This document shows positions 1 through 64,000 of a stretch of DNA of 64,000 nucleotides, piece by piece. The stretch is from the NCBI GenBank assembly GCA_030704615.1, contig CM060734.1, positions 15,190,001 through 15,254,000 of the forward strand. The letters are read 5' to 3'. The stretch's first letter is position 1. Each line of letters opens with the position of its first letter. This stretch comes from Takakia lepidozioides. Its lineage: Eukaryota; Plantae; Bryophyta. A program made the translations under genes and the position numbers. The notes beneath the pieces are model-generated. The model did no database searches, was not told the origin of the DNA, and worked only from the letters and a program-made list of their open reading frames with translations.

Positions 1-46
1 CCACGAGTTCAGGCGAGGACATGAAGCAGAGATTGAGGAGTGGAGG

Positions 47-6726: not shown

Positions 6727-6760
6727 CCCAAACCTGGCAGTGGTATCTGCAGGTTTGAGG

Positions 6761-7164: not shown

Positions 7165-7692
7165 TGTGGCAGACTACTTTATTGTGCATATATGTGTGGT
7201 GTGGTTTGGACAGCGATGTAGTTGTGTAGCGATATGTATGCGCACGACAGCTGTCAAGTTAAATAAGCACAATGTGAAAACAACTAGAATAAAACTAATT
7301 ATTTGTATTTAACACTTGGATTTAGATCAAGTGTTAAATCAGGTGTCAAGTTTAGTTTGACACCTGGTCCGTCTTATCTTCACGAGAGCGGCAGTCGCGC
7401 GGCTCATCTCTCTCGAGTTGAGCCTGCGCGACCAAGCTCCTTCATTCTTCAGATCTGAGTGTGCTTATGATGGGAGTGTAGGTCGTTGTGGGGTGGAGTC
7501 CCCATAGCTTGGGGTGCCCCTGGCTCGACTATTATTCAAAGAGTGATGTTGAGGGATTTCATATTTCTGGTGTTGAGAGTGTGTGTCCTTTCAAGCTTTC
7601 TTATCATTGTGGCAGACTACTTTATTGTGCACATATGTGTGGTGTGGTTTGGACAGCGATGTAGTTGTGTAGCGATATGTATGCGCACGACA
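7165..7692 (+). repeat. Probable 3' LTR of the DNMT-gypsy, with an 85-bp direct repeat at both ends (7165-7249 and 7608-7692)
   Basis: Begins TG right after the PPT and ends GACA. The two 85-bp copies differ at one visible position (gcatat vs gcacat). Confidence 0.7.
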
Positions 7693-7738
7693 AGAGCTTA
7701 GAGTTCAGTACGTGATCGTCCTTGGGATTGGCCTCATC

Positions 7739-12291: not shown

Positions 12292-12325
12292 TGGGGACAT
12301 CAACCTTGGAGCGTGGGGGAGGAAA

Positions 12326-19113: not shown

Positions 19114-19226
19114 TCAGCCATTGAGGCAGCTCTTAGAATGGCGAACCCAGAAGATGACCAGACTGTCTCCACGCAGAAATCTACAAACACATCTGATATG
19201 TAAGTAATCACCCAATCCTTGGGCAC

Positions 19227-24599: not shown

Positions 24600-26395
24600 C
24601 CAACTACTTGTTTGGGATTATCAATTTTTTTCCATAATACTTATTTTGGAAATGCTATATATTTTTAATCCCAATTTTTAATCCATACTGGATGAAATTT
24701 CTGTTATAACCATAAATGGATGATTAATAGGCAGATATGCATTTCAATGCATTTTAGGTTTATGCTCCTTTGATTTAAACCTATTGAATGCCCATTTTTC
24801 ATCCTGGTCTGATACCATCCATACCAGATGGTGGATGAAATCGCGGGTGGTTTTCCTTTAAGTGTCTCTCTGCCCTAGACACAGCACGATATCGTGCGTG
24901 TTTTTTTTCTCTGGAAGAGGGCGATGGCGGACGAATGCTCGATGGCGGCTGAATGCCCGAGCAGCAAGATCCAAATGGGTGTGTTCTTGTTTTTTGAACG
25001 TGCGATGACGGCAGACACTTTCATCTCCCGCGATGGCAAATGACATACTGTTGTGTTTGCCTACGTTTTTTCCTCATTGATGAAGCAGCGGCGGTTATGG
25101 AGGTGGGGAAGCGGCCTGTATTACAAGATACAACTTGTCCTCAACTCTCCTCCTGTTGCATTCTGTTGTGCTCGTTCAAATTCAGATGATGAACACTCCA
25201 GCGTCCTACTCCACAAAAGATTGAGGTTCTTTGTGGTGTCACATCTATGCTTTCTTCTGCTAGTTCTGTGATCTTTGCATGCTTTATGGCTCATACCTGA
25301 CATGGATAGCAACTGTGAAATCCTGTAATTCACCTCGCGCATCCTCACTAACGCACAAAACATTTTTTGTGTTTGTTTTTTGGACGGGCGCAGGTGAGGG
25401 ATTTCACTTGGCATGAACTCTTTGGCTTGCAGATGATCTGGTTACTGCAGGAGGGATAAGATATGATGCAAGCTGCCGTTGTTGCAATTTTCTGCTTCAA
25501 GGGGGATATGTCTTAAACCTTTACTTTGATTTCTGGTTCTTGGTAACCAAATCTGTTAAGTCAGGGAAGTAAATGGGCTGGTCTTCCTAGAAATCAGACC
25601 TTATTGTGAAGGTTCGGGCTGGTTGTGATGACAAGGGTTTGGTGGTGCAAGTGTGACATTGGATGCATTTTTCCAGACCTATTTCTGGCCTTTTGGAGAG
25701 TCAGACAGTGCTGTTTATGCCTCACCAGTTTAGAATGTATTAAGTAAGGCATTGGGTAAGCCTTTTTAAGAACACATACATTCTTTCAGGCTCCCCCACG
25801 GAGATAGCTTACAACATACTTGTTTAAGCTTTTTGAACCCAAGAATTACCAAGCCAGTATTTTTAAAGGGCTTTTTTGATTATGAACTGTATTCTTAAGC
25901 TCCCCCCAGAGATTGGGAATGTGACATGGTAATGACTTACGGGTTTTTGTATGATCATCACAGCATTTGCCCTCTGTTTGGTTGTTGTAAGCCACTGGAA
26001 CACGTACAGCTCTTATTTAAAACTCAGTATGTTTTAAATAAAGTGGTTCAGACTTTGATTGATTGACTGTATGCAAACGTGCATATATTCTTCAGAACCC
26101 TACATGCTCATGATATGTGTTTGTTTTTTTAGAAGACCCCACCCTCCCACCCTATGATTTCAAGAACTTTGAAATCCAGTCTCTTTTATTTAAGATGAAC
26201 TATTTATGGAGGGGAAGTGTTAACATGATGATATAAGGATACCTTGTAATTTAAGGATCTTTTTTCTGGGATTGTACATGTAAGGAGATGTTTGACAATG
26301 CCTTGTAATGAGGCTGCCATGTCATTTTTCTTGACAATGACTTTTACTAAGTCTTGTCTATGTCTTGACATGACATGAATATCTTTCCTCTCTGA
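24600..26395 (+). repeat. Divergent relative of the PLE pseudo-LTR, in tandem behind copy A
   Basis: Shared blocks: ctgacatggatagcaactgtgaa (~25297), catcctcactaac (~25340), gacgggc.caggtgagg (~25383), ccaccctccc.ccc (~26139) and the terminal cttgtc.atgtcttgacatgacatg.atatctt.cctctct (~26353-26392). Confidence 0.7.
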
Positions 26396-37940: not shown

Positions 37941-38039
37941 GGCTCATGACATGTAATATTTTAATGTATTTTAGCTCCTCATAGACATTAGGGTTCGTGG
38001 GTTGGCAAGTTGATTTCGGCTAAGTGTTAGGAGAGGGAG

Positions 38040-40262: not shown

Positions 40263-40816
40263 AGGCCACAACAGCTTATCAAAGCAAAGCATCACAGTTT
40301 ATGGGGTACAACTGTCATTGGCCATGTTTGGGCACTTACAATAGCAATTGGTTTGCATTTCTTGAAGTGAAAGGCTCGCCCCTCCATTTTGGGTTGCAGA
40401 TGTTTGGTACTTCTACGCAATTGCTGCCAACTGTGTCACCTACCCACCGCCAAAACGCAAAAATGTATGAAGGGAATCAACATCACAGATTGTTGTTTGC
40501 CAACAATGAAATAACAGCAATATCAGTCCTGAATGCTTCAATCTTGGTGATGGCGAGTGAGAAAGTGGTGGCCTCCAAGTCCTGTGGTCATCATAAGCTA
40601 ACCATCACAGTAGCATATATGGGTGTTGTGATAAGTCCTCTCTACATAATGAGAATGATAGATTCCTGTTTGAGAAAGAGCCCGAAGAGCCTAGTACCCG
40701 TCATGAGTAACATATACATGCTAAAATGTGTCCCTAAGGTATTACAAATTTACTGACTGAGAATTTGAAGAAGCAATACTGCATTGGCCAAACCTGAGAA
40801 TTAAGAATTGATTTCA

Positions 40817-43603: not shown

Positions 43604-43920
43604 CCACCTAGCAACCATTGAGGGGTACTCCAGAATAATTTCAAGGGAACAATCAAGCCCATCATCTAAGGAATCTGCATTATTCTGGAACAACGTCCAA
43701 TTGGCATCTACTGGTCAACAACCCTTTATGTACATTTTCCCATCCTTGGGATTATACAGACCTTCTGCAAAATACACAAGCGGATTTTCAACAGAAAACC
43801 CAGCTGGTGTAATCTTCAAGTGAGCTCCCACTTTGAAATATTATGGTTGCTTGCTTGGGCAGCATGCACTTGAGCGAGGATTCGCTTTTAACGACATCAT
43901 CCATTGTCCCTCTGGAACCA
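43604..43920 (-). pseudogene. Captured fragment of a plant DUF2921-type gene, fused in frame to a PPR fragment
   Basis: YFAEGLYNPKDGKMYIKGC*PVDANWTLFQNNADSLDDGLDCSLEIILEYPSMVARW resembles the EGLY..GKMYLVGCR..GLDC.IEV...YP...RW segment of DUF2921 proteins (from recall). Confidence 0.6.
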
Positions 43921-43931
43921 TGGTAAAATTA

Positions 43932-44570
43932 CACTACAACAGATTCCGGCTTTTACGTCTGCTATTTTCCAGTTGTATCAGCCTTTTATGACTGCATGAC
44001 TGCCCAGTCAGATAAACCCAGTCAGTTGTGACAAATGAGTCGTAAGTGCCATAGAGTCGTATCTGCCAGTCGTGGAGCTCATTGTTGACGTGGCAACGGG
44101 AACGCCTAATCATAGTCATTGATAAGACCGTAATAAATGATTGCGAATCCATGTCATCTTCACGTGGAACGGAAGGGATATGCCACATGTCACGTCAAAG
44201 GGAAGGCAACAGGGTCTTCACGACTGGCATATACGACTTCCGCGGATTAACCCCAGGACAGCATGTGGATAATACCGGGAACGACACATGGCATGACAGG
44301 GTGACTTCCGCAGATTAACCCCAGGACCACACGTGGATTAGACTGGACATGACACGTGGCATGACAATATGGAGCGGGAGGGTCTTTCGTGACTGGAATA
44401 TATGACTTCGGACGTTTAATCCCAGGTCCACACGTGGAGTCAAATTATGCAGGATGGGGGTGGGGTGGTCGTTATGACTGGAACATATGACTTCCATTGC
44501 ACACTCTGGATACTGCACGTGGCACGAGTATGGGCAAACACGAGGGGTGAAAGTGGCACGTGGCGGAGGC
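43932..44570 (+). mobile_element. CACTA terminus with subterminal repeats, same family as 58138-58992
   Basis: CACTACAACAGATT is identical to the start at 58138. Repeated (a)tgact(tc) and cacgtgg motifs. No right TIR seen nearby. Confidence 0.7.
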
Positions 44571-44574
44571 TCTG

Positions 44575-46660
44575 TCTTGGTGAGCATTCATGATGCTCCC
44601 GCACTTAACATATATGTTGACAAGGGTGTTGAGGAGAAAAACACTTGGCGTGAATCCACTTTGGATAATGTGGGTGTGCACCTGATTTCTAGCTTCCAGA
44701 CCTTTCATCTTGATGCACTTAAGCAAGAGACATATACACATATCTGAATATGCTGAAATGCTCCTTGGAGGTAGTCGTGTACATGACCGTAGTCATGGGC
44801 CTGACTCTAGCAGCATTGAAACATGAAAGCACATTTGAAATTGGAACATCAATTCAAATACAACGTGACTTAATGTTCAGAGATCCGTTCCATAATCTAA
44901 TCCGGTGCTGCTACAAAGTTGCAAAGTCTAAGTAGACTTCCAAATGCTTGAGCAGAAGATGCATACGCTGGCTTGGCCGGACTTGGTCACCCACCTTCAA
45001 CTGCCATCCAGCCCGAAAATGGCAAAAGATACATGAGCAAGCTTTCAAGCAATACCATAGCAACAACAACATTGACATATGTGAAACAAACTAACATCAC
45101 TAAGAATACGTCTAAGCACATTACACAAACTCGATGTGTGCAAAATGGAAAATTAGAGGTAGGGAACCCTTACCCCATTGTGGCAGTCAAGGACTAGAGT
45201 TTGGGAGTTGTCTTGCTAACAGGTAGCGCGGTGGCTGCAAGCATCACACTCCATGACACCACATCTCATTCAGCTATAGTATTGAACACTCCCTTTGCAT
45301 CCTCGATGCACCCACATTTGGCATACATGTCCACCAGGGCAGTGTTCAGAATGACATCTGGTAATTGACAGGCATACACCTTTTTGCCTCTATTGTCCCA
45401 CCATTGACTGGGGTCAGAAAAGTATTCATTCCACAGCTTCTCCTCATCTCTGTAACCTATTTTTGGATACTTTCTTGTTGTCACATTGGCAATATCATAT
45501 CAAAGTCACTCCAAACTAGATTCACTCAACCAGCTAACTTGCAGAATTCAACATGGAAATTTAGGGCCAATTCTGATAAGAGGGAAAAGCAGGGTCTCAT
45601 GTGTTGAAGAAGGTGCCTTCATTAGCACTGCCTGATTTTATCAATTGTGCCGCTGTTGCTGCAACTTCCAGTTGACCATCTACCCATGCAGGTTTCTTGT
45701 AGCTATCCTTCCACAGGGAATCATAGGTAATTTGGAGCTTGAAATCCGGGCCTCTTGGATGAATCTGCACCCACACTCTATCCCTGCTCCTTCAGTCATG
45801 CCCACGAGAGTATTGTTCTGAATCACATCTGGTACAATTTCAGCTTTGGTGATGCAACCATGCACCTCTTTGCATGTGCTAATGTTTCCAGCTTCCAGAC
45901 CTTTGATCTTGATGCACTTAAGCAAGAGACAGACATACGTATCTGAATTTGCTGAAATGCCTTGTTGGTTTAAAGTCTGTAGAGCCTCTGTCGGTCTGCC
46001 TGCCTCACAAAGCATCTTCACACTCTATCCCTGCTCCTTCAGCTATCCAGGCCTCTGCACAAATCATGCACACATCCTTGCCTTGCTGCTAGCAGCTGAC
46101 AATGACAGCCTAGAATTTTTCCATCAAACACCCCAACCCTACTGACTTAGAGGCTATAGTGTCCAAAGCCATGTCTGTTTCCAGAAAATTGTCTGATGAA
46201 AATGAAGTTAGGCAGAAAACTTCCCTGGACTTGTTTCCAGTCTGTGATAGGGGAAGGACATCATGGATGACCTCAAGGGTCTACCCACTCTTGGCACCAG
46301 ACTGAAATTTAAACTCAGGGCAGGAATCCTACCTTTGAATAGCAAACAGAAGCAGAGAGGAAAGAGAGAGTGCAATTGCACCCAACTCAACTAATCACAC
46401 TAGTTCCTATGGTCAATTGCATCTGCTACTCTCTGTAATCTGAAAGGCATTCACCTTTTTGCCTCGGTTGTCCCACCATTTAATGGGGTCAGAAGAGTAT
46501 TCATCCCACAGCTTCTCCTCATATCTGTTACCTGTTTTTGGATACTTTCCTGTTGTCACATTGGCAGTATCATGTCAAAGTCACTCCAAACAAGATTCAC
46601 TCAACCAGCTAACTTGCAGAATTCAACATGGAAATTTAGGGCCAATTCTGATAAGAAGGA
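44575..46660 (-). pseudogene. PPR N-terminal fragments with OSB-type PDF motifs (two copies, ~45380-45600 and ~46455-46660)
   Basis: YPKIGYRDEEKLWNEYFSDPSQWWDNRGKK, MLCEAGRPTEALQTLNQQGISANSDTYVCLLLKCIK, and FWVDGQSNPPW at ~43150-43180. Confidence 0.65.
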
Positions 46661-47369
46661 AAAACACCGGAGGGTAGATCTCAAAATATGCCTCCAAACA
46701 TTGAAGGCACTGTTGTCTACAATGAGGTTGGAACGAACGACGTGGACATGCAAGGGAGGCAATATGGGTTGGGCCTGGATGGTCAGTAGAAGGTCAGATA
46801 GAGAGAGTTTCAGAGAACTTTTTCCTTGAGTTTACAATGCTCGATCGTAGTATTGACTGCATCATTCACGGAATTATTCCCAGGAATTCGCATCCCACGC
46901 ACACATTGCAAACAGGACAACAAGGACACACAACCATCTCATTTCAAAATTGGCCCCGAATAAAAGTAAAAGAAAACTTGATATCAAGTGTCACAGTCAT
47001 CAGAATCACAATCGACCTCCTGTGCTATGTCATCCACAAAGATTCCGGCCCCAACACCACGTCTTCTACCACGGCCGTCGATGGTTGGACTGCGAGTGTC
47101 ATGAACGGACATGCTTGCTGTAAGTGCCTCTGCATAGACGGGCAACATATAAGACTGAGGAGGACTTGAAAGAAGTCCAAAAAGGTGTGATAGCCCTAGA
47201 GGGTCAGTGGAAGCACACGGACTCCTGCACAAGTCGACAAAAACCCATTTTGAATACAATGATGCAATGCACAAGTCCAACGAAGACGATGTCTCCCATG
47301 TGCACTTTGCCTTAAGAACAACAATTATGGGTATTGAAACAACAATGTAGCATCCATAGGTTGAACTTA

Positions 47370-49620
47370 CTCACAGGCAAAGTCGGAGTCTAGCTCCTTG
47401 TCGGACATCTCCCCTGTATCAATAACACCGAGAAGGGGCTCAGGAAGGACTTGAGAAGTTTGTCCACCCAAACCCATCAGGAGGTTCTTGTAAATTTCGG
47501 CATCCCCTTCAATCCCGAAGAGATGTCGCGCACTGGCCTTGCAAGCGTGGTACGAAGCACCTGCAATGGAATAGAATGAAGGAAACAGACATTGAAGACT
47601 CATTTGGAACGGTGGGAAGTGCTGAAAGTGCAAGCTCAAACAAACCCGATCAAATGTGAAGGATGAAGAGACAAACCTGTGCCCATTGACAAATCCAAAA
47701 CTCTGGCGTTGGTGTAGGTGCAGCACTCCACAATCGTTTGAGTGAAAGCCGGACTCCTCTCCCTGGCCCCTCTCCAAGGAACCCCATTCCCCCTTCGCAA
47801 GCACACGTTGTTGTCCACGTAGTTGTGGTGCATGTCATCCGTGGGAGGATCTGTCCTCTCGTCTATGAACTTGCCCCCATGAGTGATGGCGAACTCCCTA
47901 ATAACGGCTGGAGTCGTAGGTGGATGCACTCGGACGAGACAAACAGCTTCAAATAGACGAGTCTGCGAACATGACATCCACAAGGCACTAAGAAGCTTGA
48001 AAACCAAGCCCCTCCATATTCCTTTGAGCGACTTATGCAACTCCATCCGAGAACCACCAAGAAGAGGAATAAGAAGGCAGATTTACCATCTCTCCCGGAC
48101 GATCCCCCTTCGTCAGGTACATGTTGTTCACACAATTCCATGTCTTCACGACCCTCATACTGGAGGCTTTCAAATAGCTGGCAAGTGCACGGCGACAGAG
48201 AAGGCGATGGACTGGATGAGCACCAAAACACCTGCATCGGACAGAAAGAAATTGCAAAAGGAGAAAACCCACCGCCAGTAGCGCTCATCAAAAGCATTCC
48301 AACCTGGACAAGCACCCGCTGGAGGGACATCCGGGACTGGCAACCCATCAGGGATGTCCAAGATGATGAGTTTGGCTGCATATGGCTTCTCCTTCCCGTT
48401 CACCCAGGATTTGGTCATTTTAGCCTGCAAACAAGCATGCAATGGAATGCTCAAGAGGATTGAAACGAGCCATGCCCACAACACACAAGAAGCAAAAGAC
48501 AACACACACCGTGCCGAGGAACTCCACAATCCTCTCCCACACTGGTGATGGATCGCCCTTGTAATCAGATTTCTTGGACTCCATCATGGCAAGGAATTCG
48601 ACGTTGGCCATCTCCAACCTGGTAGGGAAAATGACCCTCGTGGGATGCTCCACTGCATGGTACGGGTCCTTAGGTTCAACCACCCCCTTGTTCTTTCTCC
48701 CAGATCCCCTACCATGCGGTGGAGTCTCTTTGGTCGGCTGGACATCCGCTGCAGGGCTAGTTTCTGCAACACTTCCCTGCCCACCTACCTGCCCCTACGC
48801 TCCCTTCCCCCTACCCCTTGCTTTCCCCCCACCAACAACAACATCCTTTTCCTTTGCCTTTCTACCTTTACCCGGGGTATCCTGAGCTCATTCTCTGCAA
48901 GTGTCCTCAAATTTCTATCATGAATCTCGAGGTCGGCAGCTGCGGCGGTGGCTGCTACATGCTCATTCTCTCTCCTCAAAGACACCTCCTGCGCTGGGGT
49001 CTCAGAAACAGGGCAATCCAAATACCAACCACAGGCAAAAAGATGGTCTGGGCCCCAGTCCTTCAAGATCCCTGTAGTAAACATGGTCTGGTTGCCAGCA
49101 GGAACAAGCCACAGGTCCATGAAATCAGGATGTTTGTCCAAGCAGTTCTCTGCCATGAGAACATACTTTATGGTACCTGCAATGCAACTATTGTCTCCTA
49201 GCTTTTCTACCACATCACGAAGACCCCCAAAAAGAGTATGCGGCACCGCACACAAAATAGCCTGAAGGGCCTAGGGTGTGCACGTTGATGTTACTACACA
49301 CGGATAGAACAAATAAGTGTGCGGCACCGCACACTCATATGAGTCAGCACAAAACAGGTTGGATGGAGGAGAGTGTGTCTTTGCAAAACAAAGAAGCATA
49401 GTCCATTTCGCACCTGTAAAGGCATCGTTAGGCTTCCTCTCCTTTCTCTTGCTGGTCAAGCTCATTTATTCGACTGATGCCACCCTCCTTGTTGAACTCC
49501 CTGAAGAAACAAGATTGCCACACTGTGGCTCTCCATTTCCGCATGTATGCTTGGAAGGTGACCTTCGGTGCTGTCATGGTGATGCCATAGTCAGCCAGCT
49601 GCGTATATAGAACAGACTGG
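47370..49620 (-). pseudogene. Spliced beta-class DNA amino-methyltransferase-like gene (N4-cytosine/N6-adenine family), probably transposon-borne; cut upstream by the PLE
   Basis: Motif IV-like KLIILDIPDG (DIPD 48358-48347), FLSDAGVLVL, motif X RERSPAFTQTIVECCT, motif I VLDLSMGTG^AS split by a GT-AG intron (47676-47561), motif II RHLFGIEGD. Motif IV precedes motif I, which is the beta order. Frameshift near 48200. Confidence 0.68.
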
Positions 49621-50979
49621 GCCCTTTCCTCCAACTGCAAAACAATTCGAATGCAAGAATGAACCAGAAAACAATCACAGCCAATGGAACATGGAAAGAG
49701 AACGACAGAAAGCGAAAAGAAAGTGACACAACAAATGACATCATACCTGGCTCCAGTAAGTGGCCTTGTGAAGCCATGTATATATTACATATACCTTATA
49801 ATTATGTGCTGCGACGGTAAGAGAGACCAATTCATTCACCAAACCACACTAGGCTACGGAGAAGTGATCACTCTTCTGCAGCGGGACACCTGGCGTGGGG
49901 CTCAGCCAGATTCTCTTTGAACACAAACGAGCCATGCCCACTTCCCGTGCTGGTGGCGTCCAACAGATCGTCTCCAACAGAACACAATCAGAGTAGAAGC
50001 GTTCACAGATAGAGAATGGCTCATACACAAAGAGAGAGCAACATGTAATCTGTAGATAAATAGGGATAGAGTACTTCCCAACAAGGAGTAAAAGCGCCGC
50101 TGCAAAATAAAGAACCATGCGTTTCTGATCAAAGCGATCACCGCTTTGTCGTCTGCCAGAGAAGAATCTGTTTAACCACCAATGCGCATCCCAAGAGCCA
50201 GCCATCACGAGTACCATGTAGCAGCAGGGGAGCAGGTTTATACGACGCATCATCAAGGTTCACTGAAGCACGAGTTCAGTGCTGTGAAGTGTGTCGGCCT
50301 GCTTAGGGCAAAACTTCCCGATTTTTCATCCAGGGTGGATGAAAAATCACATTTTACCAAGAGAGGCACCTTGTCAATGGATGACATCCCATAGAAATGT
50401 ATCTTTTAGGGTTATGGTATAGGCTTAGGTTTAATAACTGCCATCATTTATGATGGTAGTTTTATTATTCTCTTGGATTTTATAATAGGTAACCATTATT
50501 TATGTAGATCATCCAGTTTAGATGAAAGAAATAGATGGTAAATCCAGCTTTCTGTACATTAAGTTTCATCACCCTATAATAAAATAATCCAAATTTGGAT
50601 GAAAAAGGCTGGGATGAAAAACTAAATAACCTCAAAAGGTTAAGGTCAGATGAAATCCAAAGAGTTATAGAGGGAGGGGGAGAGAGGGAGAGAGAGGGAC
50701 CCACCAGCCAATCCCCTGGCATGGCAGAACCTTACGGAGTGAGTGTGGTATGCACTCACCCCGTAAGGGAGTGCATACCAGACCTCTTCTCATAAGGTTT
50801 TCCCTCTTCCATATAGTTCTATCCTCAGATTATATTATCCAAAAGAGTAGAATCCTACATCCTCACTTCCTCGGATCAAGAATGAAACGATGGCATAAAA
50901 TGTATCATAGCAAAACTAGTATAGTATCACTAGAAAAGAACGGAGAGTTCAATGGTATAACTTAGCTCTGTATAAGTTT

Positions 50980-53458
50980 TTAGAAAGTACCTTTCAGTTT
51001 CTCAATAAGCTCTTGTACAGGGAAGAGCAGGCCAGGGAATGAACCACGTTCAAGGAATTTTGTCAAGATACGAGCAAGTTTTCTGGTCTTGAAACCATTC
51101 CTCCCAAGAGTGTTAATCAGAATGCTACACTCCTTCCCAGCCAAATCAGCATTGCTGGAAATGTATAGAATAGGCACAGCTTGTGAAATCACAATGTTAT
51201 AAGATTGATTCACAGGCCTATTGGATAAGAACTGGATATATTGAGTGTAAGAGAAAGGAAGTAGTCTTCTCTTGTCATATTTCTGGAAATGGAACTCACC
51301 TGTGTCACTGTTTGAGACTGTAATCTGGATATTCATGAAACAAGCTTCCAACCCCACATATTGGGAATCGGTTTTAGTGCGTAGTAGCTCAGGTTTGATC
51401 TCCACTACATTGAGTGGGTAGATCCACCAAGGGTTGTTGCTGCTTCTGTCTGCCCAGGGGTCCAGGAATAACATTGCATCATCCACATTTAGCCAGCATA
51501 TATCATCAATGTATCTGAAGGCAGATTTAAACATAGGCATAAGCTGGAATTGTCCTAAAGCTGCAAGCCTTAAGATGAATTTGATTTCATAAGAAAGGAA
51601 GTACATGTTGCACCATAATGGTGAGCATGAAAAACCCATAGGTATTCCAGAAATCTGCTGCCACACACGGTCCCCTAAGGCGACAAAACAGTGTGACATA
51701 AGCCATTTGTGGAGCATAAGTAGCTTGACTTCAGAAAGTTCAATACAGGTACCTGATTTTGGGAAAGACGTGCCCCATCTACTTTTTCCGAAAGTACCGT
51801 TTTTGGCTGGAATCCATAGAGTATGACGTGCTCGGGGGTGAGACCGATGGTGTTGCTGGAATGCAATCTTCACCACGTATTCAATGGCGTCCCCTAAGTT
51901 ATCTTGTCCTGTCAAAGGTATGTTCTCGTAGCATTGTGTAATGTCAGCAACAAAGATGTTATGGACTTTTTCAGGCAGGTTTAGTGTAAAGTCAGTGATG
52001 GAGTCAATAATCCAATACATAGCAGTAGATACTTTGAAAAATTGCTCATAAGTATCCAGCCTTGTCTTGGCCCATTCTTTTACCAATGGTAGAAGATCCA
52101 TGGTAGCCCTTGTAAGAAGGCTAGCTAGTTCACTGAAAACACATTTATGGGCATTGGTAATCCATCTGTATTTTTTCTTATGTAGCTTGTAGATTCCCAT
52201 AATGTAAGGTAGTCTATAGGAGGGAGCAGGTATCTCCGGAATCAGACTCTGTATTTCCACGGAAATGTTTCCTAGAACAAGGTCAGGTGGCAGCCATACC
52301 TCAGCTTGCTTGCACGGTGTAAAGTCTTTACCCATCAATCTGTGGAAGGCTTGAGTTCTTATGTGCTTTACACACATAAAACATACGTTGTTGTTAGCCT
52401 TGTCAAGACCAGAAAAATACAGGTGATTGAGAAGCCATGAAAGTTCATCTTTTGCCTCTTTTACAATAAGAGGATTGCGCTCATGGTGAGTGAAGTCGTA
52501 CCTTCCTCTGCCGGCTTTTTGTTTCAATCTATCCCAGCATGTGTTTTTTACCCATTGGCTGCAGGTTGCGGCCCAAGATTCACATGGGTCTACATGTAAA
52601 ATTTCACAGGTTTTGTGGAAAGCCCAAAGACACTTGTTCAACAACGTCTTTCAGCAAAGTACGTTTGAGAGGGATGTGATTCATACCTAGGCTGAATAGT
52701 TCTTTCAGCCTTGCGTGTCTAATAATATTCAGGTCCATGGTACGTACGTGTTGCATAGGTGTAGAACCAGATAGATGGAATTCTGTTTTTGTATCCACAT
52801 CCCGAAAATCATGAAACCTCTTGGCACTGTCACATAGACAATCTGGTGAGTGAATCAGGTCTTGCATAAAGCAAAAATCACGGAAAACAGCAGCAGGCTG
52901 ATAGTATTCAGAGCTGCTTTGTTTATGATATGTCCATCCAAAAACTATCTCATCGATGAGAATAGCCAAGTCATTTTGTCGAAATTCCAAAAAAGCTTCT
53001 TTTATCAAGTTCCTAGGGTTTATCCACTCCATACCACGGTTTGGGTACAACATATGAATGAATCCCAAGGGAGCAGGTTTTGCTGCCTGTTTTATGAATT
53101 TCCTGCCATGGGCATGAGTTTCAATTTTTCTGCAACCATCCTCAAGACCAAACAACGCATCTGCACATACAAAGTAGAGGAACATACCAAAAATGAGATT
53201 TTTAAAGATCTGTCCATGATCCAAAATCTCGTTTGCGTATTGGGGAGAACTCGTCAGTGATACGACGAGTCTTGTATGACTCCTGGCTGGCGATGTTGAT
53301 GGTGGTACTGGAATTAGCACCCGAACCCCCAAGTGATGACCGATTCGTTGCTCTTGAATTCTCAGAGGTGTTGGTAGAGTATTGTCCCCTGCCAAAGCGT
53401 CCTCCTCTTTGGTAGAGACCTCTTCCACGACCAGGGGTGCCTCTGCCTCGAGTGGCAT
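50980..53458 (-). pseudogene. PLE reverse transcriptase ORF2, copy B (frameshift at ~52625; catalytic motifs intact)
   Basis: GLDKANNN, VADITQCYENIP, GIPMGFSCSP, FRYIDD. Ends ELIEKLKGTF* with no endonuclease. Confidence 0.88.
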
Positions 53459-54835
53459 TGTTCTTGCCTTGTTGAGGAGGCGTCGGTCCCTCCATACGCT
53501 GCCGTTTGTAGCTATTGAATTGTGGCCTGGGAAGGCTGTCTGAAAAAGACCCGGGTTTCACAAGTTTCTCAATGTATCTGGCCCCCTTGGATTCTCCTAA
53601 CTTCCCAAGCAACTTGGCTTGTGGGTCAATTGAGAATTCACAAGCTGCTTCCATTATGAAGCCCCGGGTCATCTGGAAGGTAATTTGTGCAAGTACAACA
53701 CATCTGGCAGCCCGCATGATCCACACCAGAAAGCTGTAATACTTGGTTTGCACCAAAGGATAGGCATCATCAGGGAAGAACACAATCAGATTGTTCAGCA
53801 TATACCATACCATATGGTCAAACCAAGCAACACTCCCAATGCAAGAAGAGGGTGCCCCTCCTTGTCCACAGTTACATCTTATGTAGGGACGATGCCAGTT
53901 GAAGAGTCGACTCTTGTGATTTTTGGATCTGGCCGAACCAGTCGGCAAGTCATTTTTGGTCCTCAAGGTAAGGTTCTCACCTTTGTCACAGAGCTTGTAG
54001 TAGAAGGTCCTTAGTGGCCATGCCACAACAATAGGTTCCTTTTTTATTCTCTGAAAACCCTCCTTAGCATCCTGTGCACATCTACTGCGTTCAGCAGGAG
54101 TTATGTTGCCCCATTTGACCCACATTTCAATAGAAATGGGTGCCAATAAATTGATATTAGCATGTGGGTGCCACATCATGTGGTCGTTATTGGCAACCTC
54201 TAATTCAACTGCACGGGGAGGCAACCAAGGGACAAACTGCAGATTTCCAGGAGTGGCACCTGTTGCCCTTTCTTGTTCCACTTGTGAGATTTCTACTTGT
54301 TCACAGAATTCTCTCACTGCCTCTTTTTCTTCATCCGGTAAAATCATGTGCCCAAGGATTGGGTGATTACTTACAGAAGGGATGAAGTCTTTTTCAGATG
54401 TGTTTGTAGATTTCTGCGTGGAGACAGTCTGGTCATCTTCTGGGTTCGCCATTCTAAGAGCTGCCTCAATGGCTGACCCTTCTTTTCCCATTGTATCAGC
54501 TCCTCGGCATCATCTTCCAGTACCTCAATCATTTTAGTATTGAATTCCTGGAGCTTCTCCAGGTACCTGCCATTCTTATTTGCCATGATGCCAAGTGCCA
54601 CCCAATTTTCCAAAGCCAAGGTTTCAAGTAATAACACGGGGTTTTCATCACCTGAATTTTCCATGGCCTCAGTATCCATCTTTTGCAATGCAGCATGGAA
54701 GTCACTTGGTGTGACTTGTGCGAGGGTTGCCTGCACAGCAGGAATTGGAGGAGGTAGTGGGGACTGACACCCCAGGGTCCTCATTCCAGCTAGGACCTCC
54801 TTTGGTGACTTTCTGTCAAAGCCCCCCGAGAACAT
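53202..54835 (-). CDS. PLE ORF1, full length (one frameshift at ~54490)
   Basis: ATG at 54835 shortly after the pLTR end; joins the 429-aa ORF 54491..53202. Confidence 0.68.
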
Positions 54836-56701
54836 TTGTCAATATATCAAAATGAGAAGGTGAAAACGAGAAGGGTAAGGGTAGATGGTGTGTACAAAAA
54901 CCACTAAGTACACTGATCAAATAAAGAGAGGGAAGATATACATGTCATGTCAAGACATGGACAAGACCGCTAAGGTCATTGTCATTGAAAGACAAAACAG
55001 CCCTTTACAAGGCACCATCTAACATTCCCTTTCATGTTTACAATCTCATTTGAATACCCCGTTACATTTCAGGGTCTCTGAAAAAACAGGGCGGGAGGGT
55101 GGGATTCCAGGTCATTCATATCATGAAAGCACCATAGTATGCATCATCATCTCAAAAATTCATTTCAAACTCATTTCAAAAACCAGATTGCAGGTTTGGT
55201 TTGAAGATGATGTTTTAGAACCAAGATATAAGCAAGATTCTTAAAAAAGAAAGAAGAAACAAAAGGGTAGAGCCCCCTTAAGCAGGTATAGGCCTAGAAT
55301 GGTATTTTAAGGCCTCATAAAATAGTTCTGCCAAGGTGAAAGAGCAGCTCAAAAACCCCTGTTTGTTATCAAGCCATGAAACCAAAATGATATGAGGGCC
55401 TTGAAGAATGTGTGTTATCTATCAAAGACTATCCTTTTGATCCATCAGAGTCATACCAAGAAGTTTCATTTCAGAGCCAAGTATCAAGGTAGTTAGAGTA
55501 ATAACTGCTATTTTGTATCATTGTATCCTTCATAGCTTAACTCCTACACATGCAAATGTGGTTGTAAAAAACGAGAAACAGTGGTAAGGAGAGAAGCAGA
55601 TCCTCATTGGAGCCATCTTGGAGCAGGTCAGAAGCGGTATGGTGGCAGTTTGAAACAGTAGATGGCATCAGCAGCATAGGCAACAGCAGAATCCACATTT
55701 GCAAGAACAGGAGCTGCAAGCTTTCAGGAAATCAAGACAAGTGAAGACCCTCACCTGTGCCCGTCCCAAAAACCACCACATAGCGATGTGTGTTAGTGAG
55801 GATGCAGCAGGTAAATGGCAGGTCTTCACAGTTGCTATCCATGTCAGTGTTGAATTCTAAAGCAAGTACAGATCACAATTCAAGCAAGGGTAAACTCAAA
55901 AAACCTTGAGTATTTGTGGTATGCCCTGCGCCATGGCGTCCAACAGATCGTCTCCAACAGAACGAAATCAGAGTAGAAGCGTTCACAGATAGAGAATGGC
56001 TCATACACAAAGAGAGAGCAACATGTAATCTGTAGATAAATAGGGATAGAGTACTTCCCAACAAGGAGTAAAAGCGCCGCTGCAAAATAAAGAACCATGA
56101 GTTTTTGATCAAAGCGATCACCGCTTTGTCGTCTGCCAGAGAAGAATCTGTTTAACCACCAATGCGCATCCCAAGAGCCAGCCATCACGAGTACCATGTA
56201 GCAGCAGGGGAGCAGGTTTATACGGCGCATCATCAAGGTTCACTGAAGCACGAGTTCAGTGCTGTGAAGTGTGTCGGCCTGCTTAGGGCAAAACTTCCCG
56301 ATTTTTCATCCAGGGTGGATGAAAAATCACATTTTACCAAGAGAGGCACCTTGTCAATGGATGACATCCCATAGAAATGTATCTTTTAGGGTTATGGTAT
56401 AGGCTTAGGTTTAATAACTGCCATCATTTATGATGGTAGTTTTATTATTCTCTTGGATTTTATAATAGGTAACCATTATTTATGTAGATCATCCAGTTTA
56501 GATGAAAGAAATAGATGGTAAATCCAGCTTTCTGTACATTAAGTTTCATCACCCTATAATAAAATAATCCAAATTTGGATGAAAAAGGCTGGGATGAAAA
56601 AGGCTGGGATGAAAAACTAAATAACCTCAAAAGGTTAAGGTCAGATGAAATCCAAAGAGTTATAGAGGGAGAGGAGAGAGGGAGAGAGAGGGCAACAAAG
56701 G

Positions 56702-56796
56702 AAAAAAAAAAAAAGGTGGGGGGGGGGGACTGACTGAGCAGCAGCAGCAGCTGCTCAGTCACTCCCCCCCCCCCCACCTTTTTTTTTTTTTTTTTT
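56702..56796. repeat. Near-perfect palindrome: A13-GGT-G11..TGACTGAGCAGC loop GCTGCTCAGTCA..C12-ACC-T18
   Basis: Read directly from the sequence. A half-site also occurs at ~26416-26465 and ~56995-57016. Confidence 0.85.
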
Positions 56797-57159
56797 GGTT
56801 TCCTGATCTCTCGCTCTCTCTCCCTCTCTTTAATGCTGCTCACAAAACAAAACAAACTAGAGAGGGAGAGACGAGGCAAGAAGTTAAAAAGAGAGAGTGG
56901 GAGGGACAGAGACAAAAGAGAGGGATAGAGTGGGAGGGAGAGGGAGAGGGAGAGAGGGAGAGAGGGGGCAACAAAGAAAAATAAATAAATAATGTGGAGG
57001 GGGGAGTGACTGAGCATTTATTTATTTATTATTTTTGGTTTCCTGATCTCTCCCTCTCTGTCCCTCTCTGTCCCTCTCTTTTGTGCTGCTTAAAAAATAA
57101 AATAAAATAAGAGAGAGAGAGAGAGAGGGGGCAAAAAAGTTAAAAAGAGAGAGGGAGAG

Positions 57160-59950
57160 GGAAGACACTGATGTCATGTCAAGACATGGACAAGACCCAC
57201 TAGGGTCATTGTCAATTAAAGACATAAACAGCCCATAAACATGGCACCATCTAACACTTCCATTCCTGTCATGACTTCCCAATTGATTTCACCAATCATT
57301 CATGATAACACAGGGTGGGAGGGCGGGGTTTGTTTATGTATAGGTCATGACAACAAGACAAGCATATAAGCAAGCATCTTGTGTACTGGAAAATCAGATT
57401 GCTGTCGCATGTTCAAATTCCTGTAAGTAACCCAAGACATGCACCATGCAAGGCTCCTTGGGTAGGTAAGAACAGCCTGCCCTGCTACAGATTCAAGGTA
57501 TGTTCATACAAGCACCTTGAAGGACCAGCCTGCAATTTACCAAATTTCAAACATGCAACCAAGTAATCTTTTTGGGTTAGGATGTATGGGGCTTCGAGGC
57601 GTAATGTACGGAACTCCCCGGAGGTGTAGTATGGACCGTAGTAGCATGACAAAATATATTGCAACTTCACTCTTTGCCATTTGTAAGTACCCCAAGACAT
57701 GCATCATGCAAGGCTCCTTGGGTAGGTAAGAACAGCCTGTTCTACTACAGATTCAGGATATGTTCATACAAGTACCTTGAAGGACCAGCCTGCAATTAAT
57801 CAGATTTCAAGCATGCAACCAAGTAAACTTCTTGGGCAAGACAAACCATATTGCAGCTTCACACTTGGCCAATTGTAAGTACCCCAAGACATGCATCGTA
57901 CAAGGCCTCTTGGGTAGGTAAGAACAGCCTGCCATTGTACAGATTCAAGACCTGTGTATACAAGCATCTTGATGGACCAGCCTGCAGTTTATCAGACTCC
58001 AAACATGCATGACAAGACAGACTGCAACTTCATTCTACACCATGTACCGTTGCCCCAAGATATGCATCATGTAAGGCATTTTGGCATGGAAGAAAGGCCT
58101 GCCATGTTACAGCATCAAGATATGGACACACATACATCACTACAACAGATTGCAGTAGTTATGACTGCCAACCCGCGGTAGTCATGGTTTTCCTGACTTT
58201 GACTATGACTGCACCATGTTTTTAATATGAAATTGACCTCCCGCAGTCGTTTGTACGACTATAGTCGTTCATACGACTGTAGTCATATGAACGACTATCT
58301 AAGTAGTCGTCTATATGACTATATCACTCCGGAATGGGCAGAAGGCTGGTCAACGACAATTGACCAGATTTAGCTCACCACTCATAGTCATTTCCATGAC
58401 TACAGTGCACATGGATGAGGTTACATAGTCATGAGGACTACTGGGGATTTTGTAATTTGGTGTGTATAATACAATTAAAACACCATATGATCACATGAAT
58501 GAACAATGGGTGTATTGGTTAGTAGGTAGTGAACTATAAATCTTATATCAAAGAGGTTGTAGGTTCAAACTCCTCTAAGTACAATCAAATAGATATGATG
58601 GCCCTAGGATTAGTAGGCGAGCTAGGGATAGCACGTGACACACTAGATGGGTTGCCACGTGGTTTATTATTATTATTATTATTATAAAATTGCATTATGC
58701 CACGTGGTGCAATGCGGACTGACGTGGCGTCATACATTATTTAAAAATAATAATAATAATAATCAATTGCGCCTCGCCACGTGGCGCGGCAGCGGCGACT
58801 GCAGTATGGTATATATGACTGCAGTGAGAGATATCACTTGGTTCATCTGACTGTAGTCATCTGGACCGTACCATCCTATACTCATTGTATTCACTTGGTT
58901 TGCACGACTTACAGTCATAGAAGTCATATATACCGTTTATGACTGCAGAATAGTTATATATACAGTGATAAATACCGCGATTTGTTGTAGTGCATTTTGA
59001 GTGCCTGAGACCAAGCCCACTTGGCCAAAATAAATCATACAATGCAGGTGGTTGTTCTGATGGCAAAATGAGGCAAATAATCACTGGCAATAGTCCATTA
59101 GAGCTTACCACCATTGTTTTCCAAGAGGCTAATGTCAAGTTTTGCAAGTAGAACCTCACTATACTCCATTCCACATCAGATCCAGGCTTGAAAGAGGCCT
59201 GTCATTGCCTTATTAGGCTGCCATCTTTAAAAAAACCAGGCCTCCTCTTCCTTAGAATCTAACAGCCATTGATGCCTTTACCCTTAAAACATCATTCCTC
59301 TTTGTACCTAGTCTAAGATTCCACAGGCAATGCTGTCAAAGATTCAAGACAGGATAAGATTCAGATGTTGTGCTTCAAGAGACAGGCCTGCCAGGCCGAA
59401 ATGCTCCATCAACGGCAGCAAAACATAAGTCGAAAGTAAGCATCAACATGTCAAACCGGGAGCAAGCGGGCCGAAATCGGGGCTGCAGGCACCAGCCAAG
59501 TCACGACGTCACATAGGGTATGTTCATTTTGCTCACATCCTCATCTGCAAGCTCAAGAGAATTCAAAGCAAGTAGGGATCCTCACTTGGTCCCATCACAA
59601 GCCCCCACAAAAACCAACGGGTTAGTGAGGATTGTGGAACCCCAGGTGAATCACAGACCCCTACACTTGTCATCGATGTCAATTAAGAACCTCAAAAGCA
59701 AGAGAGAAAAACATGAAGTAAAAGGAACCCTAATCACCAAAAGCACCTTGAGCGATTGGGGAAGGTAACTGTGCGCCATCGCCACCAGCAAGCCACCTCC
59801 AGCACAACTAAGGAGAAACGAAGCATACAAGCAACCTTGCTAGGCTTAAGAAGGGAGAGAGAGAGATATACTTCCCCACACAAGCGCCGCTGCGAAACAT
59901 AAAAGCCAGAGGAGGGAAAGAGACGATGTCATCACAACGGGGTCTCCCGC
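57160..59950 (-). repeat. Second divergent pseudo-LTR relative, interrupted by a CACTA and containing a 170-260 bp tandem repeat (57423-58100)
   Basis: atgtcatgtcaagacatggacaagacc (~57171), cctcac...gttagtgaggat (~59580-59632), agcgccgctgc.aaa (~59883). Repeat marker ccaagacatgca.catgcaagg near 57430, 57690, 57885 and 58055. Confidence 0.65.
58138..58992. mobile_element. Complete non-autonomous CACTA element (855 bp)
   Basis: TIRs CACTACAACA.AT.GC.GTA.TTAT.ACTG at both ends, 3-bp TSD CAT (58135-58137 and 58993-58995), subterminal atgact/agtcat repeats. Confidence 0.92.
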
Positions 59951-61020
59951 CTATGAGAAGAGACAAGGCTTCTCTGACTCCAATGCCCTCCCAAATTGCG
60001 GCAAAATTGCTTTCTCTCCCACAATTGGCAATGCCTCCCGCATGTACTGTTATCTCCCAGTCAGATGTGACCCAAAAATATTGGGGTGATTTAACGTATG
60101 TCGGGTTTGCGGCATGTATGCCATGCATTCCTCTGGCTGCATCCCACAACAAATTTTTGCCCCAATGCACACAATTGAGAAATGTAAATGGGTGCCCACC
60201 TAATGGGAGGTTGTGCCAATTGTATTCAAAACCTATTGGCATAATATCCTCCAAGCCCACCAGCTCACAGAAACGGCGATGGATTGGTACACGACATTCT
60301 GGGCAAGCGCCTATCCGCAAGGATGTCTAGATAAGACACGTAGGATGGAACATATGTCCACATGATCTAAGCACATGACATCCCTCTGGGCCGTAAAGAT
60401 TCATGCACATCGAACAAAGTGTGTCATTTGATATCCATGACGGCAAAATGTCTCATGGTATCTCCTCCCTCTCGGCCGCGTCGATATGGCTGCTCATCCT
60501 TGTTGTGGTGTCTCACTCCTTCTCTATCTCTAATTCCCAGTTTATGCTTCTGTTCGATTTCAAAATTATGTGCTCACATTGATCGAACATAGATTCCACA
60601 TCTGCCCAATTGGTATACCCGACAAACATGCTTGATGCGTTTGCATGTTGTCATAAATGCTATCCACGCTACGGTTTGACATACATGCGACACGTTGCAA
60701 AGCTGACAGTGCCCGCTCTACCCGTGCTTCTCTGGAGGCCAGGTGGGTCGCCCATTGTACCCAATTCTCCCAATCGTCATCCAATGGCACCCATGCTCGA
60801 ATCTCCAATGCTTTTGACAAGCGCCATGCAGTTGTCATGGCAATGTCCTGCTCCCTTGTAACACGATCGACATCAGACCTGGTATCGGATTGAATGGCTA
60901 CCCTCAAGCATTCCCCGATTTCCACTACTGGTTCTTTTTCTTTTCTTCTTCTCTCATTCGCAATTCGCTGTTCCTCAACCATGGTTTTATCGGCCGCAAG
61001 GTCAAGGACATCGGGCGCGC
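59950..61020 (-). pseudogene. Coiled-coil plus RING-H2 finger pseudogene
   Basis: Minus strand ~60416-60291 reads CSMCMNLYGPEGCHVLRSCGHMFHPTCLI*TSLRIGACPECR (C3H2C3). Charged helical region upstream. Confidence 0.7.
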
Positions 61021-61024
61021 GGTC

Positions 61025-64000
61025 GATAAGCCAATATATTTTTGTGGAAAAATCTTGTTTTGGTGGGAGTAGCTTCTGTGGGTATGTCTTTGGGGTAGAG
61101 TACTTGCTCCATAGCCATGTTAATCTATCGTTGGGGATAAGCCCTATGTAGCAGCCATTTTGTGCATATATACTAGAAAGGCGGGGGCCCATGCGGATTA
61201 GTGGTTGAGCATGTTGGATATCTTTGTCCGGATAACATTCAGCTATGTATATGTGTACGTTGGGGGCCGAGATCGGCTTATGAATGTACATGTTGTCTGT
61301 ATGCTGGATGGGGGTGGCGTGTTGTTGGTGAATATATGTTAGGTAGTCAATATTAGTGGTTTTGTAGAACATGGTGAGAAGGGTGAGATTGTGGTCTGGG
61401 TCACAATCATCATGTGGGCCGAATATGTGGCCCCGAAGGCGTCAGTTGACATTTGGGTTTTAATACCTAGTATGGCTTCAATGACATAGGCATCAAGGTT
61501 ATCAGAGTTATGCGGGGAGGTAGGGTGGGGCATTATGGGGGATAGTGGGGGGTGGGTGGGAGTGTCTTGTGTATTGGCTGGGGAGGTTAGTGTTAGGGAA
61601 GAGTTGCTGGTTGGCATAATATGTTGCATGGCAGGTATTTGAGGAAGGGGATCAGGTTCCATAGATGCGGGGGGGGTGTTAGCGGTGTTTGATGTGCAAA
61701 GTTTGTGGTAAATGGAGGTGGTTGGATGGTCCTATATTGAGGGAGCAAATCTTGGGCCGTGTGTGGGTAGTAAGGGCAGGGAAGATCACAATCAAGGCTA
61801 GTTTTGGTTGTAGCACGCGAAAATTTAGTAGTGAATTCACTTGGCCTTAAAAGTCGGCAACCTGTTGCTGTGATAAGTTGGGTGAGGGTAGTAATGTGGC
61901 GCTCTTTGAAGTAAGTGAGGATGGGAATTTTTTGTTTTGGGTGAGAGAGTTCGACTCGTGATAGGAAAGGACTTGTGATCCATGCGCGTTCCAATGGTGA
62001 AGAGGTGTTGTGGTAGCCCGGTAGGTCTGTTTGTATTCTTATTTTCATTTGGCGGAGGATGAGTAGTGTACGCGCAGTGGGGGAATGTAGGCAAGCTTGT
62101 GGGTGTAAGGATGACAATGAGTGAAGACCATTGTATTTTTGGGCAAAGAATCTGAGGAGCCCCTGATAGATGATACCAAGGCGCCCATGATCATTTAGTG
62201 CTTCTGTCAACTGTGTGCCTAATGTGCGGGCGTACGAAATAATTAATGGGCTTGAGCCAATCCCATGGCTATCGGTTGGGAGTTGCGGTAGGGCATTGGG
62301 GGTGTTCACTGGTAAACCGCATACTCGTTTGGTAAGATGAATGATTTTTTTGTCGAGTTTTTTGATATCTGGTAGGGAGAAGGGTGCAGCGTGGAATGCA
62401 TATTGAATTTGGGTTTGTAAAATGATTGAATAATTGATAGTTTGGGGCGAATGGCAATTGGGGATTTGAGTAGGGCCAAGCTTTTGTCAGTGAGTTTGGA
62501 TGTTGTAGATTCTTTCTGTATGTGCCAAGTGAGAGAAGGTACTAATTGAATTCCTAGATAAGTGTATGGCTCATCCGACCCTAGGAAGGGGAAATGTTTG
62601 TTTTGGTAATGGACATATAGTTTACAGTGAGAAACGATGGAGGTTTTAGTGAGTCGACTGTGGTGTGTGACGGCTGTGATAGCACATTTGTGTAGGCTTA
62701 GTTCCATGCCTGACCATTGGTTGAATCTAAATAATTTGGTGACTTGTCTGTTTAGATGTTGAGGTTTACGTGCGAGAATAGCGAGGTCATCTGCGTATGC
62801 TGCGGCGGAGATGTTGCTTGAAGAGGTTTTGTATTGATAACCTAGCTTGGCACGGGCCAACCATCTGAGTAGGGGTTCCAAGAATACAATGAAGAGATAA
62901 GGGCTTAAGGTGGCTCTTTGGATAGTGCCTCGTAATATTGGAATAGGTGGGGTGGAGCCATAATATGCTCCAGAGTACTCTGTTGTACTATTTGTGTAGA
63001 TGTTTCCTATGAGTTGGATGGCATCAATGGGGTATCCAAGATCAGTCATAATAGAGAGTAGTCTTGCGTGATCTAGAGAGCCAAAGGCATTTTAAAAATC
63101 GATATATAGGAGATATATGTCTTGCTTAGTAACTTTGGCATCTTCAAGGGCGGATAGTACATATTGTATTTGTCGGGTTGTACTGCGCGTAGCTTGGAAT
63201 CCTTCTCAGGGGTCACTTAGAATGCGGTGTTGTTCGCCATAGTTGGACAGCATGGTGGTTAGCGTGTTGGTAAATAGTTTGTATATGGTATTGGCTAGAG
63301 CTATGGGTCTATAGTTGCTAAGATCCGTTGGGTCACCTTTTTTAAAGAGTAAAATGGTGCGACTATGCTTCCAGGTGTGTGGTATGCGCTGTAGTTTATA
63401 ACATAGTTGGAAAAATTTAAAAATGAGGTGATGGAGTTGAGGGTCGAGTGCTTGAAGTATAGCGCTAGGTATCAGATCGGGGCCTGGGGCTTTAGATTTG
63501 GATAGTTTTTTAAGACAAGATTCATAGAGGTCGGGTGTAAGGAGGTCGAGGATACGATCGGTGGGGGAGCCTCTATTGTCTATTGAGAAGCCGTCTATGT
63601 CATGCCATGGGTAGTGTTTAGCTTTACACATGCAATGAGCAGTGTGGAGATTGGGATGTAGGCAGTTGGTAACTGTGGGTGTGTAGGTGGAGGATGTTTG
63701 TGACCATATTTCTAGGTTGATATCTTTTGGGTCAGTTAGCAGGTGCCCAAGTCGGTATTTGATGCAGTCGATAGGTGGGTTGAGGGCAGGATTGAAGATG
63801 GCTTTGTGGGCTTTTTTGGGGTGGTCATGTAGTAGTTGGTTAAAGGAGGAGACAATTTTTTTGTGGTTGTCGGTAGCTTTTTGTTTAGTGATGTTGTACG
63901 TGGCTTTCTTGGCATCTCTTCCAACTTTAGAGAGTGCAGCTATCCAGTTAGGAATTTCGTGGGGATTGTTAGGTGGAAGGGTAAGTGATTGGTACATTTT
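61025..64000 (-). mobile_element. LINE reverse transcriptase region (Dualen/RandI-like), decayed; continues beyond window
   Basis: KAPGPD, LFKKGDPTDLSNYRPIAL, QEGF, YIDF*NAFGS, GTIQ..TLSPYLF..FLEPLLRWL, AYADDL, YTYLGI. Confidence 0.88.

Follow-up and report, generated by a model that had tools for sequence, protein, structure and literature searches.

A recently active Penelope-like element of the PLE-X branch in Takakia lepidozioides, with two predicted proteins and likely microsatellite priming

How does a retroelement insert away from telomeres when it encodes no recognizable endonuclease? The question is raised by a Penelope-like element (PLE) present in two copies, A and B, in a 64,000-nucleotide stretch of the moss Takakia lepidozioides (GenBank assembly GCA_030704615.1, contig CM060734.1, positions 15,190,001 to 15,254,000; below, the window, in whose coordinates all positions are given). 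Craig et al. (2021) left open how PLE-X, the endonuclease-less branch of the Chlamys PLEs, inserts genome-wide or into ribosomal DNA (rDNA) without such an enzyme (PMC8557442). We conclude, with a probability of about 0.62, that the Takakia element is a recently active land-plant member of PLE-X that is predicted to make two separately spliced proteins and likely primes at CT/GA microsatellites. The PLE-X architecture is already described, and our additions to it, drawn from six related loci, are mostly predicted.

Copies, proteins, and membership in PLE-X

Copy B (56692-49954, minus strand) is a near-full-length PLE-X-type element with an upstream pseudo-long terminal repeat (pseudo-LTR) and is probably truncated at its 3' end. 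Copy A (19114-24599, plus strand) is 5'-truncated, adjoins an RNase H-bearing open reading frame (ORF) at its 5' edge, and carries a whole pseudo-LTR unit at its 3' end. The bodies of the two copies are 97.6% identical (3670/3760), and the direct terminal repeats of copy B (about 750 bp; 738 of 744 positions identical, plus a 15-nt indel) are approximately 95% identical to those of copy A. Each copy carries its own lesions. In copy B, ORF1 is split between frames by two deletions, one of 8 nt at 54775 and one of 1 nt at 54476, and ORF2 is frameshifted by a 1-nt insertion near 52623. The reverse transcriptase (RT) of copy A has a D-to-G change in motif A, a DKA-to-DTA change, and a frameshift at approximately 22351. 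From these differing lesions, the original prediction had deduced an intact and recently active consensus. By themselves the two copies do not demonstrate an intact ORF1, however, because copy A begins only at the counterpart of 54476 and does not cover the two ORF1 lesions of copy B. Other sequencing runs do bear on these sites: the extra base at 54476 was present at full depth in contigs of all four, the 8 nt deleted at 54775 were present in contigs of three, and three runs lacked the insertion at 52623 in all or some of their depth. Between copies A and B the ratio of nonsynonymous to synonymous substitution (dN/dS) was 0.18 in ORF1 and 0.30 in ORF2, with p<1e-4 in each case; both ORFs are therefore real, and both are under purifying selection. 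In run X4, contigs of the element body reached depths of about 500-2050, whereas individual deletion variants stood at about 60-80. This contrast points to some tens of copies, a rough figure given that depth is not equal to copy number. The element family is recently active, and this part of the prediction stands.

ORF2 (50980..53160, minus strand) is an exon of approximately 725 aa that encodes a linker, the RT motifs, and a thumb. It contains CLC (the CxC motif, 52840-52832), GMNH, DKANNN (DKA at 52404), VADIT, and YIDD (51513), with RT motif A at 51951 and a stop codon just past the thumb. CLC and DKA, which mark the Naiad/Chlamys clade, are conserved in relatives, of which 46 were found at E<=1e-10 with identities of 38-49%. 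A candidate for the insertion-in-fingers domain between RT3 and RT4 is the stretch of some 100 aa that separates motif A from GIPMG and includes extra strands. Structural modeling (pLDDT, the predicted local distance difference test score, of 75) showed an RT fold closest to telomerase: the top 18 Foldseek rows were telomerases, eight of them at E<=0.001, as were the top three VIA rows. The best match, telomerase RT (Foldseek E 6e-6; VIA Z 9.3, root-mean-square deviation 4.9, 337 aligned residues), is only 10-17% identical to ORF2, and the element differs from it in being multicopy and mobile, with its own terminal repeats.

As had been predicted, the RT frame carries no C-terminal GIY-YIG endonuclease, and none is recognizable N-terminally or in ORF1. 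Pfam gave no GIY-YIG match at E<=1, and the GIY-YIG pattern was absent from all six frames of copies A and B and six relatives; this absence is at the level of sequence, residues 1-77 of ORF2 being barely covered by the fold search. The predicted lack of telomere repeats was likewise borne out, in that none of five telomere motifs occurs as a tandem pair in the window, where other repeats surround the copies.

ORF1 (53202..54812, minus strand) encodes about 540 aa when intact and comprises a helical domain, a C..CxC-x8-C arrangement, an RGG-rich tail, and a conserved C-terminal motif. It had been described as an unknown upstream protein of about 545 aa with an RGG tail. The position, tail, and size hold, although the frame is not continuous in copy B and the protein is not without kin: HMMER found 179 relatives at E<=0.001, and the domain is that of PLE-X. 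A word-index search with ORF1 had returned no match because of its low sensitivity. ORF1 contains RPYxxCxC-x8-C followed by WFDH, in agreement with the PLE-X N-termini in supplement S4 (PMC8557442). Among the matches listed, 51 of 150 ORF1 relatives have the PLE-X-type pattern, and approximately 26 of the 150 end in an SP..R..W/F-D/E-type motif (29 pattern matches, about three of them spurious). A profile built from close relatives matched 10 Chara proteins (E 1e-18 to 5e-43), and Chara GBG66519 combines the ORF1 domain with the ORF2 linker (97.5% probability). When species were checked for 30 ORF1-related proteins, 10 were from Chara, 4 from Riccia, and 6 from Calypogeia, and 10 had no species name. 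In a quick ORF1 tree the window sequence was a long branch among land-plant-type sequences, in no strongly supported group and at most 43% identical to any other sequence. The data extend the range of PLE-X into liverworts, whose PLE-X proteins carry annotations as hypothetical proteins or unnamed host genes. Annotation of this kind covers PLE-X ORF1 pieces P0061, P0069, P0070, P0072, P0077, and P0122 and the Chara GBG proteins; these pieces come from Riccia, Calypogeia, and Chara, and some are fused to unrelated genes.

We regard the membership of the element in the endonuclease-less PLE-X branch as very probable. PLE-X families lacking the endonuclease comprise PLE-X1_cBra and PLE-X2_cBra, genome-wide in Chara braunii, and PLE-X1_sMoe and PLE-X1_sTam, in 28S rDNA of Selaginella; all four in supplement S1 have the upstream CxCX1-8C domain, three of the four have an annotated hammerhead, and PLE-X1_cBra prefers (CA)n (PMC8557442). 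The Takakia element shares with them the lack of GIY-YIG, the CxC linker, GxNH, DKA, the upstream CxCX1-8C domain, an apparently non-telomeric and microsatellite-associated location, and the 5.2-7.4 kb size class. Compared by eye, the linker motifs agree with the PLE-X rows of Fig. S4 (PMC8557442), and the Naiad/Chlamys-type linker recognized originally, with its CLC and DKANNN, is thus upheld. The claim that the arrangement was undescribed fails because PLE-X, a described endonuclease-less family of the same architecture, had been reported with the same N-terminal domain and linker motifs (PMC8557442). Several differences set the element apart. Its ends are CT-rich rather than (CA)n or 28S; for its upstream domain we predict a protein of its own rather than an extension fused to the RT; it has a structured 3' element, none being noticed in the available account of PLE-X (PMC8557442); and its closest relatives (<=43% identity) form a land-plant group that includes liverwort proteins. 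It also has no canonical hammerhead: Rfam gave none at E<=1 for the window or six relatives, and the single CTGAGGA core in the window lacks matching stems. Other Rfam families produced only low-complexity microRNA-like matches, below threshold, in the window and the six relatives, and no ribosomal RNA match indicative of an rDNA target occurs in the window. The splice-donor and 3'-element motifs described below were not found in the PLE-X sequences of the available Craig supplement, in which 70-letter line breaks could hide matches. Within the literature searched, which included few subscription papers, PLE-X in this sense appears only in PMC8557442 and PMC13159263, with no follow-up beyond use as a reference set.

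Endonuclease-bearing Chlamys/Naiad elements share the CxC linker, DK(A), what appears to be a long RT3-RT4 segment, pseudo-LTRs, 5' truncation, and, in Chlamys-3_cRei, an intron over the pseudo-LTR/body boundary such as we predict here, but are single ORFs with an N-terminal GIY-YIG; Chlamys-2/5_cBra and Chlamys-1_bBra have an upstream ORF and, unlike this element, keep the endonuclease. The Athena and Coprina PLEs, including the two-ORF Coprina-1_Alen (PMC13159263), also lack an endonuclease, often have two ORFs, and are proposed to prime through base pairing between an RNA repeat and an exposed DNA end. They differ in being telomere-associated, with telomeric repeats, in belonging to other RT clades, and in lacking the CxC linker; the window holds no telomere arrays.

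Two proteins or one

The relation of ORF1 to the RT was examined by comparing the window family with six related metagenome loci (L001-L006), seven families in all. ORF1 precedes ORF2 in all six loci, and the two frames do not overlap in five of them. In all seven families a phase-1 CAG stands at the start of ORF2 homology, and in four no Met precedes it. On the minus strand of copy B this site is the predicted ORF2 acceptor (53161, phase 1); a phase-0 acceptor is predicted for ORF1 at 54813, and a start exon with its splice donor at 55749..55845 (exon end 55755), inside the pseudo-LTR. An identical donor 12-mer occurs in the pseudo-LTRs of copies A and B, L001, L002, and L006, that is, in four of the five families whose sequence extends far enough beyond the CT tract (L004 and L005 stop too early to show the site). 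In L001, L002, and L006 a phase-1 ATG lies two codons before this 12-mer, and the frame stays open across a join from there to the ORF2 acceptor. The predicted intron would cross from the pseudo-LTR into the body, as one does in Chlamys-3_cRei. The start exon is conserved, its phase matches the RT acceptor, and the C terminus of ORF1 is conserved; ORF1 is therefore predicted to be separate from the RT. We propose that a promoter in the pseudo-LTR would drive the RT and ORF1 as two separately spliced proteins, with the tiny phase-1 start exon spliced to the phase-1 RT acceptor so as to skip ORF1. Thus, judged from exon and phase conservation, ORF1 and the RT are probably made as separate proteins, and the two-protein arrangement of the original prediction is the reading that the present data favor.

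A number of observations count against this model. The seven families fall into approximately three clades, and their counts are not independent. L003 lacks the donor 12-mer. The window family has ACG at 55764-55762, where three relatives and a unit at about 59570 have ATG, and ACG also stands at the matching sites in copy A and in a unit at about 25390; copy B has an in-frame ATG at 55842, 29 codons before the donor, which is possibly a compensating gain and is lost in copy A. No start exon for ORF1 was found in L001, and no splice junctions were found in contigs of the runs guessed to be RNA. One such contig (X8) spans the predicted ORF1 acceptor unspliced, although it is a diverged sister and may be DNA or pre-mRNA. 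Finally, gene models of Riccia fluitans, R. sorocarpa, and Chara join the ORF1 domain to the RT linker, and Craig et al. join the PLE-X upstream domain to the RT, modeling an intron-joined fusion for Selaginella (PMC8557442).

These last points define the alternative, in which a single spliced gene yields an ORF1-RT fusion of about 1,150-1,250 aa and the two ORFs merely reflect an intron. Besides the Selaginella model in section 9 of PMC8557442, it draws on the fused gene models KAL2652425, KAL3687338, and GBG66519 and on candidate phase-1 donors within ORF1 of copy B. No phase-1 donor inside ORF1 was common to the families, however, when scanned with a crude matrix. The two Riccia models join at different points, both upstream of the conserved acceptor; the last residues of ORF1 are conserved; and no longer fused protein occurred among 1842 candidates, which is weak evidence. 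We regard the fusion as rather unlikely. Expression of the RT through a +1 ribosomal frameshift where ORF1 ends in CTT-TAA, a codon pair that we take to be shifty-stop-like in copies A and B and across which the ORF2 frame is open in both, was rejected as highly improbable because the frames do not overlap in five of the six relatives and stops lie within the spacer.

A splice-donor signature (after 50991 in copy B) closes the thumb in 32 of 33 RT relatives among the matches listed, and the RT may gain a short further exon downstream. A tblastx search for such an exon against relatives gave only one weak match, on the opposite strand.

The 3' end and routes of insertion

A conserved, structured 3' RNA element with nested stems (50699..50790, minus strand) directly precedes the CT-rich tract in copy B. 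This element followed by (CT)n ends the 3' untranslated region in copies A and B and in all six relatives. When the relatives are fitted to its named structure, 87% of cells are paired and double changes occur at 11 of the 19 pairs; against this, the covariation partly reflects kinship among the relatives. Folding z-scores range from -0.7 to -4.5, and single-sequence folds show alternative pairings. In all families the element closes with several short G runs (50719-50700 in copy B, minus strand) immediately ahead of the CT tract, which might allow a weak G-quadruplex. Compared by eye with the hepatitis delta virus-like ribozyme topology, the element did not fit.

The CT-rich tract and the first 745 bp of the pseudo-LTR unit form the 3' terminal repeat of copy B (49954..50698, minus strand). 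The complete unit is 1.77 kb (54925..56692, minus strand), with a CT-rich tract at its start and a shared terminus at its end. Four units in the window stop at the same CT-rich point (54925, 24599, 26393, and 57155), beyond which their sequences differ, and copy A runs about 1 kb past the point equivalent to 49954 to reach this common terminus. Thus, position 49954, given in the original prediction as one limit of the span 49954..56692, is probably not the natural 3' end of the element, copy B probably being truncated there. In sequencing runs the pseudo-LTR unit is far deeper than the ORFs, with a step up in depth and clustered loose contig ends at 54880-54925. An extension of approximately 45 nt beyond the unit end (54880..54924, minus strand) has intermediate depth, with loose ends at 54880 and 54889, and appears to resemble the 30-40-bp tail known for PLEs (PMC8557442). 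The shared-terminus and depth data fit a 3' end at 54925 with a short tail, an upstream repeat of copy B that is a 5'-truncated copy, and the predicted intron from pseudo-LTR to body. Partial tandem/pseudo-LTR structure and 5' truncation, as expected of Penelope-like elements, are both present; 5' truncation and template jumps would produce the pseudo-LTR and chains of short units. Three of the related loci (L001, L002, and L006) assemble into single units, circular or permuted, of 5.4-6.7 kb, as might be expected from terminal redundancy or from head-to-tail arrays.

The 5' junction of copy B and the four unit ends are CT-rich, and one loose contig end is (GA)n. No target-site duplication longer than 6 nt was found around copy B. 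We propose that the CU-rich end of the RNA would pair with an AG-rich 3'-OH exposed in a microsatellite by a nick or break of host origin, where the RT would prime, and that ORF1, with its putative four-cysteine zinc site and RGG tail, would serve as RNA chaperone and targeting factor. The model for this step is the annealing-based priming proposed for telomeric endonuclease-less PLEs (PMC13159263). Three points weigh against it: only two insertions are readable with their flanks; the RNA 3' end is ambiguous between 54925 and 50699, both CT-rich; and the precise 28S site of Selaginella PLE-X is more easily explained by a specific nuclease (PMC8557442). By analogy with the telomeric elements, insertion by nuclease-free priming at CT/GA microsatellites appears somewhat favored. 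If confirmed, such priming would parallel, at interstitial sites, the telomerase-like extension of chromosome ends.

ORF1 might itself be the missing nuclease or nickase that directs insertion, with a zinc-binding fold not yet described and working either in cis or in trans with the RT; this is unlikely but has points on its side. A model built on the full-length relative P0047, with both window ORF1 frames in the alignment, was confident (mean pLDDT 81; 337 of 531 residues at pLDDT>=90). Polar residues R88, E91, N107, N109, R196, D220, and H/Q221 and the four cysteines are conserved, the latter forming a putative zinc site. The domain is kept in all four PLE-X families of supplement S1, and targeting in Selaginella is precise (PMC8557442). 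However, helices make up most of the model, alongside a few short strands, Gln replaces the conserved His (221) in 12 of 76 sequences, and the RGG tail and leading position resemble those of nucleic-acid chaperones. The ORF1 protein of long interspersed nuclear elements (LINEs) is a nucleic-acid chaperone with a comparable leading position. Fold searches with the whole P0047 model gave no match at E<=0.001 in PDB or BFVD, the best VIA match reaching Z 4.6 over 57 helical residues; ORF1 had no sequence match in PDB, and no Pfam family was common to more than 3 of 88 family members. These whole-model searches, in which the core was not folded alone, neither show nor exclude a nuclease fold.

Less probable still is an endonuclease borrowed in trans from a host GIY-YIG PLE or a LINE. 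No nuclease is recognizable in cis, the window contains LINE-like ORFs, and Chara hosts endonuclease-bearing Chlamys families with a (CT)n preference (PMC8557442). Against borrowing stand the lack of a target-site duplication around copy B, noted above, and the retention of the architecture from Chara to the liverwort relatives.

A more far-reaching form of the two-protein model is unlikely. In it, PLE-X ORF1 would be a second gene nested in the first intron of the RT gene and would encode a new-fold zinc protein for nicking or microsatellite targeting, while a conserved switchable RNA structure beside (CU)n would position the template for the telomerase-like RT. If true, retroelements would have a route of integration that is new. 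The young multicopy family and its relatives provide testable candidates: a conserved, probably separate protein that matches no known fold, the structured RNA next to a CT tract at the 3' end, and defined, predicted splice junctions.

Sequence around the two copies

Further pseudo-LTR units lie near both copies. A diverged sister unit stands head-to-tail behind copy A (24600..26393, plus strand), and the 3' end of another lies upstream of copy B (57155..57269, minus strand), followed by CT/GA low-complexity palindromes. These palindromes, two imperfect inverted repeats, occupy 56660-57162, just upstream of copy B, and similar sequence follows the sister unit at 26416-26559. A diverged pseudo-LTR-like unit at 59520-59900 (minus strand), missed by blastn and found by alignment, has the conserved start-exon motif with ATG. 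Upstream of the sister unit end is a degenerate tandem repeat of about 192 bp (57384-58120) that is multicopy in sequencing runs.

The truncated end of copy B is flanked by a repeat at 47000-49953, for which high depth was measured over 49000-49953. Its ORFs had no Pfam match at E<=0.01; one of them (47636-48079, minus strand) contains a DLSMGTG motif that we take to be reminiscent of DNA methyltransferases.

The rest of the window consists of LTR elements, a DUF4218 ORF (presumably CACTA-type), LINE-like ORFs, and pentatricopeptide repeats (PPRs). LINE-like fragments lie at 17900-19113 and 60400-64000, the first with an RNase H domain and stopping at the start of copy A. Two LTR-retrotransposon-like gag-pol sets in the same orientation fill positions 1-12300, and broken PPRs cluster at 38000-46700 in two inverted blocks with tandem periodicities of 387 bp and 84 bp.

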